A DNA stretch of 12,204 bases, from IMG/VR virus record IMGVR_UViG_2667528155_000014. One strand, given 5' to 3'. The notes under the pieces were generated by a model that did no database searches, was not told the DNA's origin, and was given only the letters and a program-made list of their open reading frames with translations. This DNA is from a virus (Duplodnaviria > Heunggongvirae > Uroviricota > Caudoviricetes). Made by a program: the position numbers and the translations under genes. This document shows, piece by piece, positions 2,648-7,584 of the stretch (the stretch's first letter is position 1; every line of letters starts with the position of its first letter).

Positions 2648-2711
2648 TTGTCAGCCGCTGTCTGCGGGTAATAGGTTCCCCCCGTTGCAGTGAATCCCAC
2701 TAGCGTAGGGG
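2648..2711 (+). promoter_or_regulatory. promoter-leader module copy A (TTGTCA -35 at 2648-2653, ATAGGT -10 at 2671-2676, conserved leader hairpin 2686-2711)
   Basis: sigma70-like hexamers 17 bp apart with CTGCGG in the spacer; leader TGCAGTGAATCCCACTAGCGTAGGGG is homologous to copies B and C; candidate PR'-type late promoter. Confidence 0.4.
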
Positions 2712-2803
2712 CATCGTCAGGTTTCGCTTCCACTGTTGACGTTGCGGTTAATACCATCGGGAGGCACCCGGCACTGCGGCAAATTGAAAACGGCGGTAAT
2801 TCA

Positions 2804-2830
2804 GGGCTCACTTCGGTGAGCCCTTTTTCA
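2804..2830 (+). terminator. rho-independent terminator (tR'-like, ~120 nt downstream of module A start)
   Basis: Perfect 8-bp stem GGGCTCAC / GTGAGCCC with TTCG tetraloop, followed by TTTTT. Confidence 0.7.
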
Positions 2831-2853
2831 TTTCGCCGACATGATAAAAAGCT

Positions 2854-2915: not shown

Positions 2916-3402
2916 TGTGGCACTATTCATTCTGCCAGTATGTATTGCACCACACCATGGATACGTTTCACCGGGTTGCGACCGGCACCGCACTCATATC
3001 GGGTCGTGGAGATAGATTATTCGGGCTCTACTTTTAAATTGGTCATTGATGTGATTTCTGAGCGGGAAAATGCAGAATAAATACAGAACTGCTAATGCTC
3101 TAAAGGCATATTTACGCAGTATCAGATTTACAACGAATCAGGTATTCTTAATTAGCATCATTCTGTTGGTCATCGGATTATTAGGGGCAATAAAACTTAG
3201 TGTATGGGCTCTATTGAGTTGAACAATAGTTACATGCTAATAAGATTTATCGCTTTATCTCCTTTTTTGGCGTAATAATTCAGGTAGGGTGGGTGTTAAC
3301 AGTCTATTTAACTTGTTTGTGATTTACAGCCGAACAGATTGACTGTTGTAGCCTGCTGGTGATTTGTTTTTCTCATTCCTTTTTTACTTGGAGTGATGAA
3401 CA

Positions 3403-3837
3403 ATGATTACTATCGTACTGAATAAAATTAACCAGATCTTATCCCATGCTGACTTTGGTAAGTTCCTGTTAAGACTTGCTGTTGGTGGGCTGATGTTATT
3501 TCATGGTTTGCATAAGCTCTTTGCAGGAGTTGAAGGTATTAGCGGCATGCTTATAGCTAACGGCTTACCTGGATTTTTCGCATACGGAGCAATTGTGGGA
3601 GAGGTTTTGGCTCCAGGCCTGATTATTCTTGGGGTTCTTACTCGCCCCGCAGCACTGTTGCTGGCTTTTACAATGATTGTGGCCTGGCTTCTGGTGGGGG
3701 TAGAGGAAACATGGATGCTCGAAAGTACTGGCGCGTGGGGAATAGAAAGCCTGGTGTATTTTTTTGTTGGCTCTCTGTCAGTTGCATTACTGGGGGCAGG
3801 GCGTTATTCGGTCGCCAGGGGAACTGTATGGAATTAG
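3403..3837 (+). CDS. DoxX-family integral membrane protein (moron/cargo gene)
   Basis: 144 aa, four hydrophobic segments, LMLFHGLHKL-type N-terminal helix typical of DoxX proteins; GGAG 9 nt upstream of ATG; AT-rich upstream region. Confidence 0.6.
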   Translation: MITIVLNKINQILSHADFGKFLLRLAVGGLMLFHGLHKLFAGVEGISGMLIANGLPGFFAYGAIVGEVLAPGLIILGVLTRPAALLLAFTMIVAWLLVGVEETWMLESTGAWGIESLVYFFVGSLSVALLGAGRYSVARGTVWN

Positions 3838-4228: not shown

Positions 4229-4305
4229 GGCCCTTTAGCTCAGTTGGTCAGAGCGTGCGACTCATAATCGCCAGGTCGCTGGTTCAAGTCCAGCAAGGGC
4301 CACCA
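4229..4305 (+). tRNA. tRNA-Ile2 (anticodon CAU, lysidine type; by anticodon alone could also be tRNA-Met)
   Basis: Full cloverleaf: acceptor GGCCCTT/AAGGGCC, D-arm GCTC...GAGC, anticodon loop CTCATAA, T-arm GCTGG-TTCAAGT-CCAGC, encoded CCA. T-arm and anticodon arm match my recollection of E. coli ileX; a prophage copy would be ileZ-like. Confidence 0.85.
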
Positions 4306-4308
4306 AAA

Positions 4309-4384
<76 letters not shown>

Positions 4385-4649
4385 GTTTTGAATGGGCGCT
4401 GCTTTTTGCAAAATTGCTGTGTAAAAATACTGACCTTCCGGTCCAGCGCTCATCCAAAAGCACTCCGTTAAAATCCTGGCAACCATGGGTGGTTTGTTGG
4501 ATGGAGTGCCTCCGAATAATAAAACTCGCGTTATAAAGGCTGCGCATTTGCGTGGCCTTTTTCGTATTCAGATCTGCAGCATACTCAGCCCGGAAGGCTG
4601 AATTTTTTCACCAGTACACAGCACCATCCGGAAACCGGGGGTGAGGTAT

Positions 4650-4985
4650 ATGAAAATGAATGACAAAAACCCTGAATTCTGGGCGGCGGTTTTGACCGGA
4701 CTCAAAAATGCGTGGCCCCAGTTACTGGGGGCATCAATGGCCGGACTCATTGCTTATGCCCGCCTGATATACGATGGCGTCACGCGAAAAAATAAATGGC
4801 TTGAGGGCGTCCTTTGTGGCGCCCTTTCTTTATGTATCACCAGTGCGCTGGATGCGTTTGGCCTTCCTGTATCGATATCACCCTTTGTCGGTGGCGTGAT
4901 TGGCTTCGTCGGCGTGGATAAATTACGTGAAATTGCCATCAGTGCGCTTAAAAAACGGGCAGGGATAAATGATGAGAACCAGTAA
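4650..4985 (+). CDS. S: class I holin, lambda S-like, with dual-start motif (Met-Lys-Met)
   Basis: MKMNDKNPEF... starts at ATG 4650 and ATG 4656 behind GGGGGTGAGG; three hydrophobic segments; C-terminus KKRAGINDENQ resembles lambda S KKAGVEDGRNQ as recalled. Confidence 0.85.
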   Translation: MKMNDKNPEFWAAVLTGLKNAWPQLLGASMAGLIAYARLIYDGVTRKNKWLEGVLCGALSLCITSALDAFGLPVSISPFVGGVIGFVGVDKLREIAISALKKRAGINDENQ

Positions 4986-5391
4986 AATTTCTCGCGGGAT
5001 CCGCAACAACAACCCCGGCAATATCCGGTGGGGTGATGAGTGGCAGGGCCTGGTACCCAAAGCACAGCGCACTGATAAATCATTCTGCCAGTTCACTACG
5101 CCTGAGTATGGTATCCGGGCGATGATCATCATCCTGCGCAATTACCAGCGTAAGCACGGGCTGAACACGGTTACCGGCATTATTAAACGCTGGGCGCCGC
5201 CGAACGAGAACAACACGCTGGCGTATATCAACAACGTGGCTCAGGCGACGGGTGTTACTCCCGACCAGCGCATTGATACCAGTGACAGTCGTTTCATGAT
5301 GAAGCTGTTGCAGGCCATTATTAAGCACGAGAACGGTAGCCAGCCATACAGCTTTGATACGTTTATCCGCGCGCTCGAACTGGCGGGTTAA
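4969..5391 (+). CDS. putative endolysin (small peptidoglycan hydrolase, family not resolved; N-terminal RNNNPGNIRWG motif)
   Basis: 140 aa, no TM segment, start overlaps the holin stop. Assignment rests mainly on position between holin and Rz/Rz1. Confidence 0.55.
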   Translation: MMRTSKISRGIRNNNPGNIRWGDEWQGLVPKAQRTDKSFCQFTTPEYGIRAMIIILRNYQRKHGLNTVTGIIKRWAPPNENNTLAYINNVAQATGVTPDQRIDTSDSRFMMKLLQAIIKHENGSQPYSFDTFIRALELAG

Positions 5392-5413
5392 GTGAGCGTG
5401 TATTAAAAGCGAA

Positions 5414-5450
5414 AACCCCGATTGCGGCAAACAGTCGGGGTTTTCTGTTT
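5414..5450 (+). terminator. rho-independent terminator (T-rich on both sides, probably bidirectional) between endolysin and spanin genes
   Basis: 8-bp stem AACCCCGA / TCGGGGTT with 13-nt loop, followed by TTTTCTGTTT; plus-strand AAAAGCGAAAA upstream gives a U-tract for the minus strand too. Confidence 0.55.
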
Positions 5451-5539
5451 CTGCACCTTGAGGAAAGCAAGGGAGAAATTATGTATAGGGAGGTGTGTTC
5501 CCTGTGAGGAAGTATAAACGAATTCTGTTGAGGTTGACT

Positions 5540-5677
5540 ATGAAAAACGGCCTTGAAATAGATGCTCCGTTAACAAAAGAAATCAGTAGTGCTACGGCAT
5601 GGGCTATACGGGCTGTGGCGTTGACGGTTGTGCTGTATGGTATTGCGCGCCTGATTGTGGCGATTCGCTGGTGGTAG
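5540..5677 (+). CDS. small protein with C-terminal transmembrane segment (45 aa), unknown function
   Basis: ATG at 5540 preceded by GAGG at 6-nt spacing; hydrophobic AWAIRAVALTVVLYGIARLIVAI; stop 5 nt before the Rz start. Below the usual size threshold, hence low confidence. Confidence 0.3.
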   Translation: MKNGLEIDAPLTKEISSATAWAIRAVALTVVLYGIARLIVAIRWW

Positions 5678-5681
5678 AGCC

Positions 5682-6254
5682 ATGAACCGTATAACGATTA
5701 TCGCAATAATTTCGTTCCTGGTTGTGGTTGTTATGCTGGTATTCAGCCGGGCCGACCTTGCTGTATCAGAAAGTGATAACCGGATCCTTCGCAATGATAA
5801 CGCGCTACAGGGGCAGGTTATCGCCACTCAGGTTTTCAACTTTAACCGGTTTAATCAGGTTGCTGATAATACCAGCCGCCTTAACTCCCTGATTGATGCC
5901 GGTTCCGAAAAAACAGTTATTGAATACCGGGAGATACTCCGTCGTGAAAAAACCTGTGATTTGCCTGTTCCTGCTGATATCGCTGACGGGCTGCTCGACC
6001 ACGCGTACCGTTTACGTGCCAGCGCAATGTACCCCGATCCCCGGAACGCTGATGCAGCCGGTGGTGACACCATTACCGCCAGCTCTCTGACATACTGCCA
6101 GGCTGTTCTCTGGATCGGGCCGCTGCTGGCTACTATTGAGAAGGCGAATAACCAACTGACTGGTATCAGTAAAATTGAGTTGGAACGCAAGCAACTAGGA
6201 AAAATTATGGAGTTAAAGGACAGAGACGTTAAGGTTGTAAATCATTTTAAATGA
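5682..6254 (+). CDS. Rz: Rz-like inner-membrane spanin (i-spanin)
   Basis: MNRITIIAIISFLVVVVMLVF N-terminal signal-anchor like lambda Rz (MSRVTAIISALVICIIV), then a long charged/helical periplasmic domain; contains an embedded +1-frame lipoprotein ORF. Confidence 0.8.
   Translation: MNRITIIAIISFLVVVVMLVFSRADLAVSESDNRILRNDNALQGQVIATQVFNFNRFNQVADNTSRLNSLIDAGSEKTVIEYREILRREKTCDLPVPADIADGLLDHAYRLRASAMYPDPRNADAAGGDTITASSLTYCQAVLWIGPLLATIEKANNQLTGISKIELERKQLGKIMELKDRDVKVVNHFK
5944..6090 (+). CDS. Rz1: Rz1-like outer-membrane lipoprotein spanin (o-spanin), embedded in Rz in the +1 frame; GTG start (alternative in-frame ATG at 5893)
   Basis: VKKPVICLFLLISLTGC lipobox (LTGC) followed by a proline-rich mature region (TPIPGTLMQPVVTPLPPAL); GGGAGA 9 nt upstream of GTG 5944; entirely inside Rz. 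Confidence 0.75.
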   Translation: MKKPVICLFLLISLTGCSTTRTVYVPAQCTPIPGTLMQPVVTPLPPAL

Positions 6255-6433: not shown

Positions 6434-7342
6434 CTATTGAAGGAAGTTCCGAGCCCGAAGAAAGTTTTGAGCAATCAGGTCGCCAATTGGATTTAAAACA
6501 TATGAATTAAAGTCATTTATGGTCGATACGCCAAATGCATCTAGAGTTAACTTTAAAGCAGGAAATGTTTCAAAGAACATCTCATCGCTTTCAAAGCTGG
6601 TGATTCCAGTCCTTTTTCCAAGTAGGTCTTGATAGTTTGTTATGTATTGCTTGTCTGTGAAGATAACGCCTTTTAAGCTGAGGAGATCAATGTTTATTTT
6701 TCTCAAAGACTCTATTTTATCTAAGAATTTAATGTAATCAATATCATAGCGAGCATAGTATTCTTTGTGGGCTGAATGGTTTTGCTCTACGGTAAAGCCA
6801 ATTAATCCAAAGTGAGTTTCATTTCTTTCAGCAAGAGCTGTCATGTTAATACCGTTTCGTATCTTATTTATGTTTCTGAGGTAATATATTAGAGAGAGAA
6901 ATTTAATGTCGTTTGTTGTTAATTTAGATGTCACCTCAAGAGCGTGATCTATAACTATACTATCCTCTTCTTCTTCAGTTTGAATTTTAGAAACGATTAG
7001 CTCTTTAAGTAACTCCGATTTTTCATCAAATCCTTTTCGAGCCACCTGAGTTACAGCTTGGTTCATCGAATATTGAATGTCAGGGTCGGATAATTTCTCT
7101 TTTAATTTATGATCAAGATCACTAGAAAGTTTAGCTGCAATCTGATTACCAAATTCTATCGCTCGTTGGTTTACAAGTTTATATGCTTCCTCTTTTAAAG
7201 AAGCCATTTGTGCTTGAACTACTAATTCACAGATAGTAACTACTTCAGTAGTAGTATTACCAATGATAGCATCACCGGTTACTTGGATTGCGGTAGAACC
7301 ATCTCCGACATGTTGACCCGACTTATGATCGAAAAGACTCAT
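6434..7342 (-). CDS. hypothetical 302-aa protein, AT-rich cargo gene of unknown function (candidate phage-exclusion/defence component)
   Basis: Long clean ORF antisense to the late operon; AAGGA 6 nt upstream of ATG 7342; ATGA overlap with the upstream small ORF; no family recognised by inspection. Confidence 0.7.
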   Translation of the reverse strand: MSLFDHKSGQHVGDGSTAIQVTGDAIIGNTTTEVVTICELVVQAQMASLKEEAYKLVNQRAIEFGNQIAAKLSSDLDHKLKEKLSDPDIQYSMNQAVTQVARKGFDEKSELLKELIVSKIQTEEEEDSIVIDHALEVTSKLTTNDIKFLSLIYYLRNINKIRNGINMTALAERNETHFGLIGFTVEQNHSAHKEYYARYDIDYIKFLDKIESLRKINIDLLSLKGVIFTDKQYITNYQDLLGKRTGITSFESDEMFFETFPALKLTLDAFGVSTINDFNSYVLNPIGDLIAQNFLRARNFLQ

Positions 7343-7584
7343 TTTTTGTCCTTTTCATTAATGGTTAAATTACCACTGACTTGTATTCCTGAAGAGTTAT
7401 TACCAATCACTTGGCTTATAGAGGATGACTTCTTCTTGTCACTTATTAAGTTGGCTACAGCAGTTAGAAAAGCCCCTAAGCTGACTAAGAAAGCCAGTAG
7501 AGAAGCCAGTCCATGATGCTGGTATGCCTGATACCCGAATCCGCATGTTGCAACGAACGAAATTAGACAGATTAACTTTCTCAC
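7339..7584 (-). CDS. small two-TM membrane protein (81 aa, GTG start), coupled to the 302-aa ORF
   Basis: Two hydrophobic segments followed by a Ser/Lys-rich tail with repeated xQVxGN motif; stop overlaps the downstream ATG; GTG start with weak GAGAG upstream, so start and reality are less certain. Confidence 0.45.
   Translation of the reverse strand: MRKLICLISFVATCGFGYQAYQHHGLASLLAFLVSLGAFLTAVANLISDKKKSSSISQVIGNNSSGIQVSGNLTINEKDKK

Follow-up and report, generated by a model that had tools for sequence, protein, structure and literature searches.

The lysis cassette of the window

In this study, we analysed a stretch of 12,204 nucleotides (nt) from a virus of the class Caudoviricetes (IMG/VR record IMGVR_UViG_2667528155_000014), hereafter the window, which judging by its genes is the late region of a lambdoid prophage. 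Positions 4650-6254 hold what reads as a working lambdoid late-operon lysis cassette built from exchangeable blocks, located downstream of a Q-type antiterminator gene and upstream of the terminase. Between the endolysin gene and the Rz spanin gene stand a terminator-type hairpin and a small open reading frame (ORF) for a membrane protein, which together form one portable conserved unit, recurring whichever holin, endolysin or Rz family flanks it. The features of the cassette (lengths of products in amino acids, aa) are:

4650-4985, plus strand: lambda-S-family class I holin with a dual start (M-K-M)
4969-5391, plus strand: endolysin of Enc34 type (PHA02564), catalytic domain only, 140 aa
5404-5455, no strand assigned: bidirectional intrinsic-terminator-type hairpin, stem-loop at 5411-5445
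5456-5472, no strand assigned: second conserved hairpin, CCTTG-N7-CAAGG (RNAalifold consensus)
5481-5507, plus strand: 8-codon mini-ORF, MYREVCSL and stop, read from the sequence
5504-5677, plus strand: small conserved membrane protein, 57 aa (phrog_1115, phrog_4493)
5511-5540, minus strand: candidate sar-type antisense promoter, within codons 3-13 of the small ORF
5682-6254, plus strand: Rz-type inner-membrane spanin, 190 aa (phrog_214, E 3e-47)
5944-6090, plus strand: Rz1-type lipoprotein spanin of the outer membrane, encoded within Rz in a different frame

The holin is matched by PF05106 (E 1.9e-37, 128 bits against a cut-off of 23.8), TIGR01594 (E 5e-39, 132.8 bits against 55.05) and phrog_126 (E 1e-39). 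Its gene begins with ATG AAA ATG at 4650-4658, in which the ATG at 4650 would be the antiholin-type start and the ATG at 4656 the holin-type start. The translation of Rz begins with a hydrophobic stretch (ITIIAIISFLVVVVMLVF) forming an N-terminal transmembrane (TM) segment, and a Pfam search with this protein gave no match. The embedded Rz1 frame, probably starting at GTG 5944, encodes the lipobox LISLTGC followed by a proline-rich mature part, and matches phrog_456 (E 1.1e-6) and, under the cut-off, Pfam LysC (E 0.012). The original prediction for this DNA had called both the dual-start S-like holin and the Rz/Rz1 pair canonical, and both calls hold, the first through the PF05106 and TIGR01594 matches with the M-K-M start, the second through phrog_214, phrog_456 and the embedded lipobox frame. 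The cassette thus shares with lambda S-R-Rz/Rz1 the dual-start class I holin, the overlap of holin and endolysin genes, the embedded spanin pair and the place between Q and terminase, but differs from it in an endolysin of another fold family and in a 290-nt insert, made of the terminator and the small membrane gene, between R and Rz.

A soluble endolysin without the membrane anchor of its family

The start of the endolysin gene overlaps the holin stop by 17 nt, and its product carries RNNNPGNIRWG. Pfam and NCBIfam searches were both without a match, which explains why no familiar motif had been recognised in this protein before. The original prediction was right that it is not a classical lysozyme, transglycosylase or M15 peptidase, but the protein is not unclassifiable: the profile and structure search suggested at that time, empty in Pfam and NCBIfam, matched PHROG 873 'endolysin' (E 5e-65) and PDB 7q47_A (E 3e-31, residues 6-130), matches which also support the earlier placing of an endolysin in the R position. 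The protein also matched lytic domains that tape-measure and internal virion proteins carry in the virion.

The structure PDB 7q47 shows the catalytic domain of ORF39 from Hafnia phage Enc34, an all-helical fold distantly related to the alpha-lobe of lysozyme, in which Glu131 is catalytic and is accompanied by two aromatic residues, Trp79 and Tyr95; ORF39deltaC is muralytic on permeabilised cells of E. coli, Pseudomonas and Hafnia (PMC8943055). The window protein is 46% identical to Enc34 ORF39 in alignment, and its E121, W75 and Y86 align with Glu131, Trp79 and Tyr95, respectively, and are invariant across an alignment with the Enc34, phiNP and E. coli strain 44 proteins. RGIRNNNPGNI, the Trp, the Tyr and the catalytic Glu (HENG) are kept in common with Enc34 ORF39 and M4Lys (PHA02564; PDB 7Q47; PMC8943055, PMC7143992), as is the endolysin position in a holin-endolysin-spanin cassette. 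A single-sequence structure model of the window protein was too poor to add anything (predicted local distance difference test score, pLDDT, 54); a fold search was unneeded given the 46% identity to a solved structure.

The enzymes of Enc34, Chi-type phages and M4Lys possess a C-terminal two-helix membrane domain, which renders them toxic and apparently independent of holin (PMC8943055, PMC7143992). Unlike this architecture, the window enzyme lacks both linker and membrane domain and is paired with a lambda-S holin: it stops at residue 140, exactly where the linker of Enc34 begins in the alignment, and has no signal sequence, signal-arrest-release (SAR) segment, TM segment or any other hydrophobic segment, and should therefore be a cytoplasmic enzyme needing a lambda-type holin. 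By these sequence features it is a soluble, anchor-less and presumably muralytic PHA02564 enzyme, a new member of an already known family without its membrane anchor.

Homologues were found in Citrobacter phage phiNP (identity 79% in tblastn and 80% over the full alignment; L007 2450-2857), where the protein is annotated 'hypothetical protein', and in E. coli strain 44 (88% identity; L001 2983-3399), where PGAP names it 'structural protein'; in both the gene occupies the same position and directly abuts Rz. The PHA02564-type domain is present in 807 phage records. Anchor-less PHA02564 endolysins of lambdoid prophages are thus missed by Pfam and NCBIfam and receive the PGAP name 'structural protein', so that automated annotation leaves many lysis cassettes without an endolysin.

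A terminator hairpin and a small membrane-protein gene between endolysin and Rz

The hairpin at 5411-5445 begins 20 nt after the endolysin stop and has 14 pairs, a folding energy of about -21 kcal/mol and the tail TGTTTCTG. An A-tract on its 5' side and a T-tract on its 3' side, both conserved in relatives, make it of terminator type in both directions. Its limits lie within 3-5 nt of the terminator hairpin earlier put at 5414-5450, and it separates the endolysin gene from the spanin genes as had been claimed. In all 65 distinct relatives (65/65) the hairpin stands upstream of the small ORF at a fixed distance; the outer stem (AAAACCCCG/CGGGGTTTT) is constant and the inner stem varies with compensatory changes. 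The second hairpin overlaps with its 3' arm a conserved Shine-Dalgarno-like AAGGGAG (5469-5475), and in L017, L121, L133 and L177 both partners differ in two of its pairs (CG to GC, GC to AU). No Rfam family was found at the hairpin at or above gathering scores, and the RNAs Esr41, Sok, AgvB and AsxR gave no match to the hairpin region even at E <= 10. The Pas small RNAs (sRNAs) are located upstream of the holin and not at the R-Rz hairpin (bioRxiv 10.64898/2026.05.13.724894).

The small ORF had been described as a 45-aa frame at 5540-5677 with a C-terminal TM segment. The gene, the segment and the end at 5677 are upheld, but translation most likely starts at GTG 5504, giving 57 aa, rather than at ATG 5540. 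The in-frame residues upstream of ATG 5540 (consensus KYKRILLRL) are kept in every relative, some of which have an ATG two codons ahead of them; in the window, GTG 5504 stands 10 nt after GGGAGG, and on public contigs with the same sequence as the window, gene callers have predicted exactly these 57 aa. The N-terminus is basic (MRKYKRILLRL, net charge +4 over the first 20 residues), the single hydrophobic segment has its best 19-residue hydropathy window at residues 37-55, and the protein ends in RWW, its stop lying 4 nt before the Rz ATG. Pairwise ratios of nonsynonymous to synonymous substitution (dN/dS) are 0.03-0.16 and low even where synonymous sites are saturated; the small ORF is a real gene under strong purifying selection. 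The C-terminal codons CGN TGG TGG are conserved, are Shine-Dalgarno-like and precede the next gene's ATG by 8-9 nt, and may be a way for the insert to avoid polarity on the downstream gene.

The small protein matched nothing in Pfam, NCBIfam or PADLOC; phrog_1115 and phrog_4493 are both listed as 'unknown function' in PHROGs, and the public name is 'hypothetical protein'. Literature searches, including searches on genes between R and Rz, found no paper on this protein (WP_000675931). We ruled out that it is a detached C-terminal membrane domain of the Enc34 type: the two do not align at E <= 100, and the ORF accompanies five unrelated endolysin families. A role as a defence system was rejected as well, PADLOC being without a match for the small protein, the endolysin and the two minus-strand ORFs described below.

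The mini-ORF at 5481-5507 overlaps the GTG 5504 start with its TGA stop (GTGA) and lies in an insertion of about 25 nt that is present in some relatives only. A predicted hairpin (about 5485-5506) folds this insertion over the Shine-Dalgarno sequence and the start. The same mini-ORF occurs in phage GER2 (L005) as MGREVLSL and stop, and the ATG-start variants lack it. In the commonest E. coli variant (PhiR5_2, L004 2698-2829, and most E. coli copies) LKS replaces RWW at the C-terminus of the small protein, and a second small hydrophobic ORF (43 aa) lies between its gene and Rz.

Distribution and contexts of the unit

The spread of the unit was followed in IMG/VR and in the complete E. coli genomes. 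An IMG/VR search with the pattern LTMKNGLE gave at least 120 loci, at least 119 of which carry the gene. Among the matches listed, a recognised endolysin lies within 1.5 kb upstream in 108 of 119 loci (PF00959 lysozyme in 90, GH108 in 15, PHA02564 in 2 and GH19 in 1), a recognised Rz lies downstream in 84 of the 119, and three loci are in tail or baseplate operons. A fifth endolysin context, an M15 peptidase, was found in GenBank phage phiSTEC1575-Stx2k. With positions 5400-5685 as blastn query, the unit matched 1339 of 5426 complete E. coli genomes, in up to six places per genome, and it was also found in Escherichia phages PhiR5_2, GER2 and phiSTEC1575-Stx2k, in Salmonella chromosomes and in E. 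coli O157:H7 (NZ_CP038363, 3537296-3537632). Scans of one genome per species gave only chance matches in unrelated taxa.

Around the hairpin, 74 nt of the window are 96% identical to the R-Rz gap of Salmonella phage SPN3UB, in which the hairpin is followed, directly before Rz, by a 45-aa ORF that is unannotated and has IRWW as its last residues. Exactly at the endolysin stop codon the window ceases to be similar to phiNP and E. coli strain 44, so that the unit together with Rz/Rz1 is a separate mosaic block in the window. A Klebsiella prophage has the unit between baseplate genes, with a protein 89% identical to that of the window and saturated synonymous sites, and Salmonella phage SEN34 has a copy of a more distant 45-aa subfamily (subfamily B) at a baseplate junction; the baseplate contexts identified are L017 and SEN34. 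The original prediction had regarded the layout of the cassette as atypical. This is not the case: about a quarter of complete E. coli genomes have it, as do many Salmonella and Klebsiella prophages, and it is a common, uncharacterised variant of the lambdoid cassette.

Several loci have further genes at the borders of the unit. In a Salmonella contig (L019 2146-2724) the lysozyme gene and the hairpin are separated by an inserted HNH_3 endonuclease gene, and SPN3UB and phiSTEC1575-Stx2k have other small ORFs between endolysin stop and hairpin; this stretch seems to be a hot spot for cargo. At loci that have a GH108 or M15 endolysin before the unit (L080, L100 and 13 other GH108 loci; L006 2655-2837), no recognised Rz comes after the unit; in its place these contexts have a lipoprotein of about 60 aa (lipobox LVGC), which may be an unrecognised spanin component.

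Transcription across the hairpin

A promoter scan found no sense-strand promoter-like site between the hairpin end (5445) and the Rz start (5682), and a promoter of their own for the spanins was rejected on this ground. Lambda Q-modified polymerase reads through terminators. Given this behaviour, late transcription probably reads through the hairpin and only unmodified polymerases stop there; the late operon begins downstream of a Q-like gene (1505-2044) and contains several other terminator-like hairpins, which Q-modified polymerase would have to pass as well, and read-through of this kind is usual in lambdoid late operons, not a peculiarity of this one. Of the two routes earlier offered for expression of the spanins, antiterminated read-through is therefore likely, with the Q-like gene upstream, and an own promoter is not, there being no promoter-like site in 5445-5682.

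Resemblance to sar antisense control of phage P22

In P22, sar is an antisense RNA that blocks translation of the antirepressor gene ant (PMC2629481, PMC13397905). The P22 record (BK000583) has the order arc stop, terminator, ant ribosome-binding site, ant ATG and, on the opposite strand within the first ant codons, the sar promoter; annotated Psar is GTGTTA-17-TATACT. The first base of sar RNA adjoins the ant ATG, and the sar terminator overlaps the arc stop. The unit in the window has the elements of immI arc-sar-ant in the same order. Its candidate minus-strand promoter consists of a -35 element TAGTCA (5540-5535), an 18-nt spacer and a -10 element TATACT (5516-5511), the latter the same as in Psar, and had been listed by the promoter scan before the antisense hypothesis was formed. 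With the spacing of P22, the predicted antisense RNA would start at about 5504-5503 and end at about 5402. Both systems have a terminator adjacent to the upstream gene, although that of the window lies 20 nt past the endolysin stop and that of P22 overlaps the arc stop. The window differs from P22 in that the target is a 57-aa membrane protein without similarity to Ant and that the RNA is predicted only.

Conservation of the candidate promoter is consistent with this resemblance, as is the covariation of the second hairpin at the Shine-Dalgarno-like sequence. In the main subfamily, T[AGT]GTCA-18-TATA[CA]T stands at the same register in 29 of 29 distinct 5' segments, each agreeing with the consensus at 8-11 of 12 positions, and substitutions keep or better the match, with TATAAT in nine variants and TTGTCA in two; the second subfamily has TAATAT or TAAAAT at the same register. 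The rate of synonymous differences (counted in codons for the same amino acid) is 0.117 in codons 3-18 against 0.317 elsewhere, synonymous substitution (dS) showing the same trend, and in comparisons of the window with all others it is 0.063 against 0.585. In a permissive scan, Rfam sar (RF00262) matched the minus strand at 5408-5472 end to end (25.2 bits, E 0.003-0.007). Conversely, a covariance model built from the main subfamily of the module alone found annotated P22 sar on the correct strand and at precisely its coordinates (24.9 bits, E 6.5e-4, a rough value), with 14 bits on the other strand, and found second-subfamily loci strongly (54-88 bits).

Several observations weigh against antisense control. 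Both cross-matches, at about 25 bits, stay far below a family threshold (the Rfam gathering score for sar is 43), and the Rfam match was gone when 11 related loci (60 kb) were searched at E <= 0.05. Owing to G:U pairs, the sense strand forms the more stable terminator in most variants, the opposite of P22 sar; wobble pairs favour the antisense strand in the second hairpin only, and a strand-asymmetry test was mixed. The candidate promoter has weak -35 elements and an 18-nt spacer, and the low synonymous change near the start can also be explained by constraints on translation initiation or by recent recombination. On balance, we regard the existence of a sar-like antisense RNA, predicted from these sequence features, as a tentative proposal with a little less than an even chance. 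If it exists, the unit would be sar-like in its working, not a member of the sar family.

A proposed role of the unit and its alternatives

We propose the following course of events. By homology, the lambda-S-type holin would make holes in the inner membrane through which the soluble Enc34-type enzyme passes to the cell wall, and the embedded Rz/Rz1 pair would disrupt the outer membrane. Comparison with relatives shows that the unit between R and Rz comprises the bidirectional terminator and, about 55 nt further on, the gene for a 57-aa tail-anchored inner-membrane protein. The hairpin would halt polymerases not modified by Q in the sense direction, so that the small gene and the spanins would be transcribed only by antiterminated late transcription. 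In addition, and with slightly less than even likelihood, an antisense RNA of about 100 nt would be made from the opposite-strand promoter that lies within the first codons of the small ORF; this RNA would start at the ORF start codon, cover the ribosome-binding site and end at the same hairpin, keeping translation of the small protein low until late transcription is strong. Taken as a whole, this explanation (a lysis cassette with a portable unit, read-through and sar-like control) is in our view moderately probable.

As to the small protein itself, a non-essential late inner-membrane factor that tunes the timing or completion of lysis is suggested by the position of the gene, which adjoins an endolysin gene in 108 of 119 loci among the matches listed and abuts Rz; as a specific function this is our best guess, yet less likely than not. 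The role of lysis regulator put forward in the original prediction is a possible one. The more elaborate proposal, in which sar-type antisense RNA gates the 57-aa protein as an unrecognised extra component of the lysis cassette that tunes the last steps or their timing, for example through the holin or the TM segment of Rz, is quite unlikely as stated. The copies in baseplate operons count against a strictly lysis-specific protein, a lysis-specific role not being required by them. They are compatible with lysis modulation, baseplate operons being also late, and fit a moron unrelated to lysis equally well.

The latter is the strongest alternative, namely that hairpin and ORF form a moron-type accessory gene, for instance for superinfection exclusion or modification of the host, which inserts by chance at gene borders of late operons, with the hairpin as an insulator. 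Small membrane proteins are typical moron cargo. The unit between baseplate genes of the Klebsiella prophage and of SEN34, and in tail or baseplate contexts at three IMG/VR loci among the matches listed, speaks for it, and so does the presence or absence of the unit between related phages, phiNP and E. coli strain 44 having the endolysin gene directly before Rz. However, no sense-strand sigma-70-like promoter lies between hairpin and ORF, the terminator is upstream and not downstream, the reverse of the classical layout, the ORF stop is 4 nt from the Rz start, the PADLOC search was empty, and the 108 of 119 loci just mentioned place the unit at the endolysin-Rz junction; we consider a lysis-unrelated moron unlikely. 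The ant moron has been discussed (PMC2629481).

A module resembling type I toxins, in which a membrane-toxic small protein and an antisense antitoxin would aid killing or lysis of the induced cell, accords with a protein of less than 60 aa with a hydrophobic C-terminus, with the candidate cis-antisense promoter and terminator, with nucleotide conservation that is highest over the 5' end, and with the leader mini-ORF of the window variant that overlaps the start codon. It also has a prophage precedent aiding phage release in hokW-sokW of Sp5, an antisense-controlled small membrane peptide with a proposed contribution to lysis and phage release (PMC8621323). The likeness to hokW-sokW consists in a small membrane peptide in a lambdoid prophage, antisense control being only predicted in the window; there is no similarity in sequence or RNA family, the basic N-terminus and C-terminal TM segment are unlike Hok, no Rfam antitoxin RNA or Hok-type family was matched, and the gene is embedded in a late operon, packed against the next gene, rather than standing as a locus of its own. 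Such a module appears distinctly improbable.

It is likewise improbable that the hairpin is a mere linker or mosaic boundary, or an element for the 3' end or stability of the S-R mRNA, and the ORF without a regulatory link: the break of phiNP and strain 44 similarity at the endolysin stop codon, the 74 nt shared with SPN3UB between unrelated flanks and the more stable sense-strand hairpin would fit, but the distance between hairpin and ORF is the same wherever the unit occurs, in baseplate operons too, the stem shows covariation and not a frozen sequence, and the A-tract and T-tract are conserved on both sides.

Extra membrane-protein genes between endolysin and spanin genes have a precedent in temperate-phage cassettes, lysA of P2. 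Like the small gene of the window, LysA is an accessory membrane protein encoded between endolysin and spanins, but it is larger, spans the membrane several times and is not known to be related in sequence, and the window unit has its own terminator and possibly an antisense gene. The lambda paradigm of lysis has four genes; the unit described here adds, at the R-Rz junction, a fifth gene, which is small and conserved, encodes a membrane protein and brings a terminator along, and which is found in a large share of prophages of E. coli and Salmonella, including Shiga-toxin-type phages and O157:H7. If the small gene affects the timing of lysis, it would bear on the release of phage and toxin, and if the antisense RNA is real, control by the mechanism of P22 sar would no longer be confined to a single antirepressor gene but would also operate in a portable cassette that is widespread.

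Other features of the window

Outside the cassette the window contains, from left to right:

leftmost in the window, before the Q-type antiterminator gene: DUF1367 and YbcO genes
1505-2044: Q-like antiterminator gene (DUF1133/Q-type; PF06576/PF06530 match)
2657-2834, plus strand: prophage sRNA of the STnc100 family (RF02076; Rfam 66.2 bits against a gathering score of 47)
3403-3837, plus strand: DoxX-family membrane protein gene (PF07681, E 1e-20)
4229-4305, plus strand: tRNA-Met (ARAGORN and Rfam)
4316-4373, plus strand: second tRNA-like sequence (Rfam alone, 44.8 bits, model positions 8-63)
4535-4560 and 4585-4601, plus strand: two terminator-like hairpins directly upstream of the holin
6434-7584, minus strand: two ORFs of 302 and 81 aa in an AT-rich island
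right end of the window: small and large terminase genes, then the start of the portal gene

The STnc100 match sits downstream of the Q-like gene and may be a marker of the promoter-proximal late transcript; this family has been tied to prophage PasD sRNAs in a 2026 preprint (bioRxiv 10.64898/2026.05.13.724894). The DoxX-family gene is placed in the late-operon leader, where local GC content is low (38% at 3001-3600), and for this reason looks like cargo. Between it and the holin lie the tRNA-Met gene and the second tRNA-like sequence, which may be truncated; this placing is like that of the tRNA genes of Shiga-toxin (Stx) phages. The AT-rich island between the lysis cassette and the terminase has 33-39% GC against about 50% in its surroundings. 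Our own Pfam and PADLOC scans gave nothing for its two ORFs, and the precomputed hits for the 302-aa product include PF28206 (Vpar_1526).

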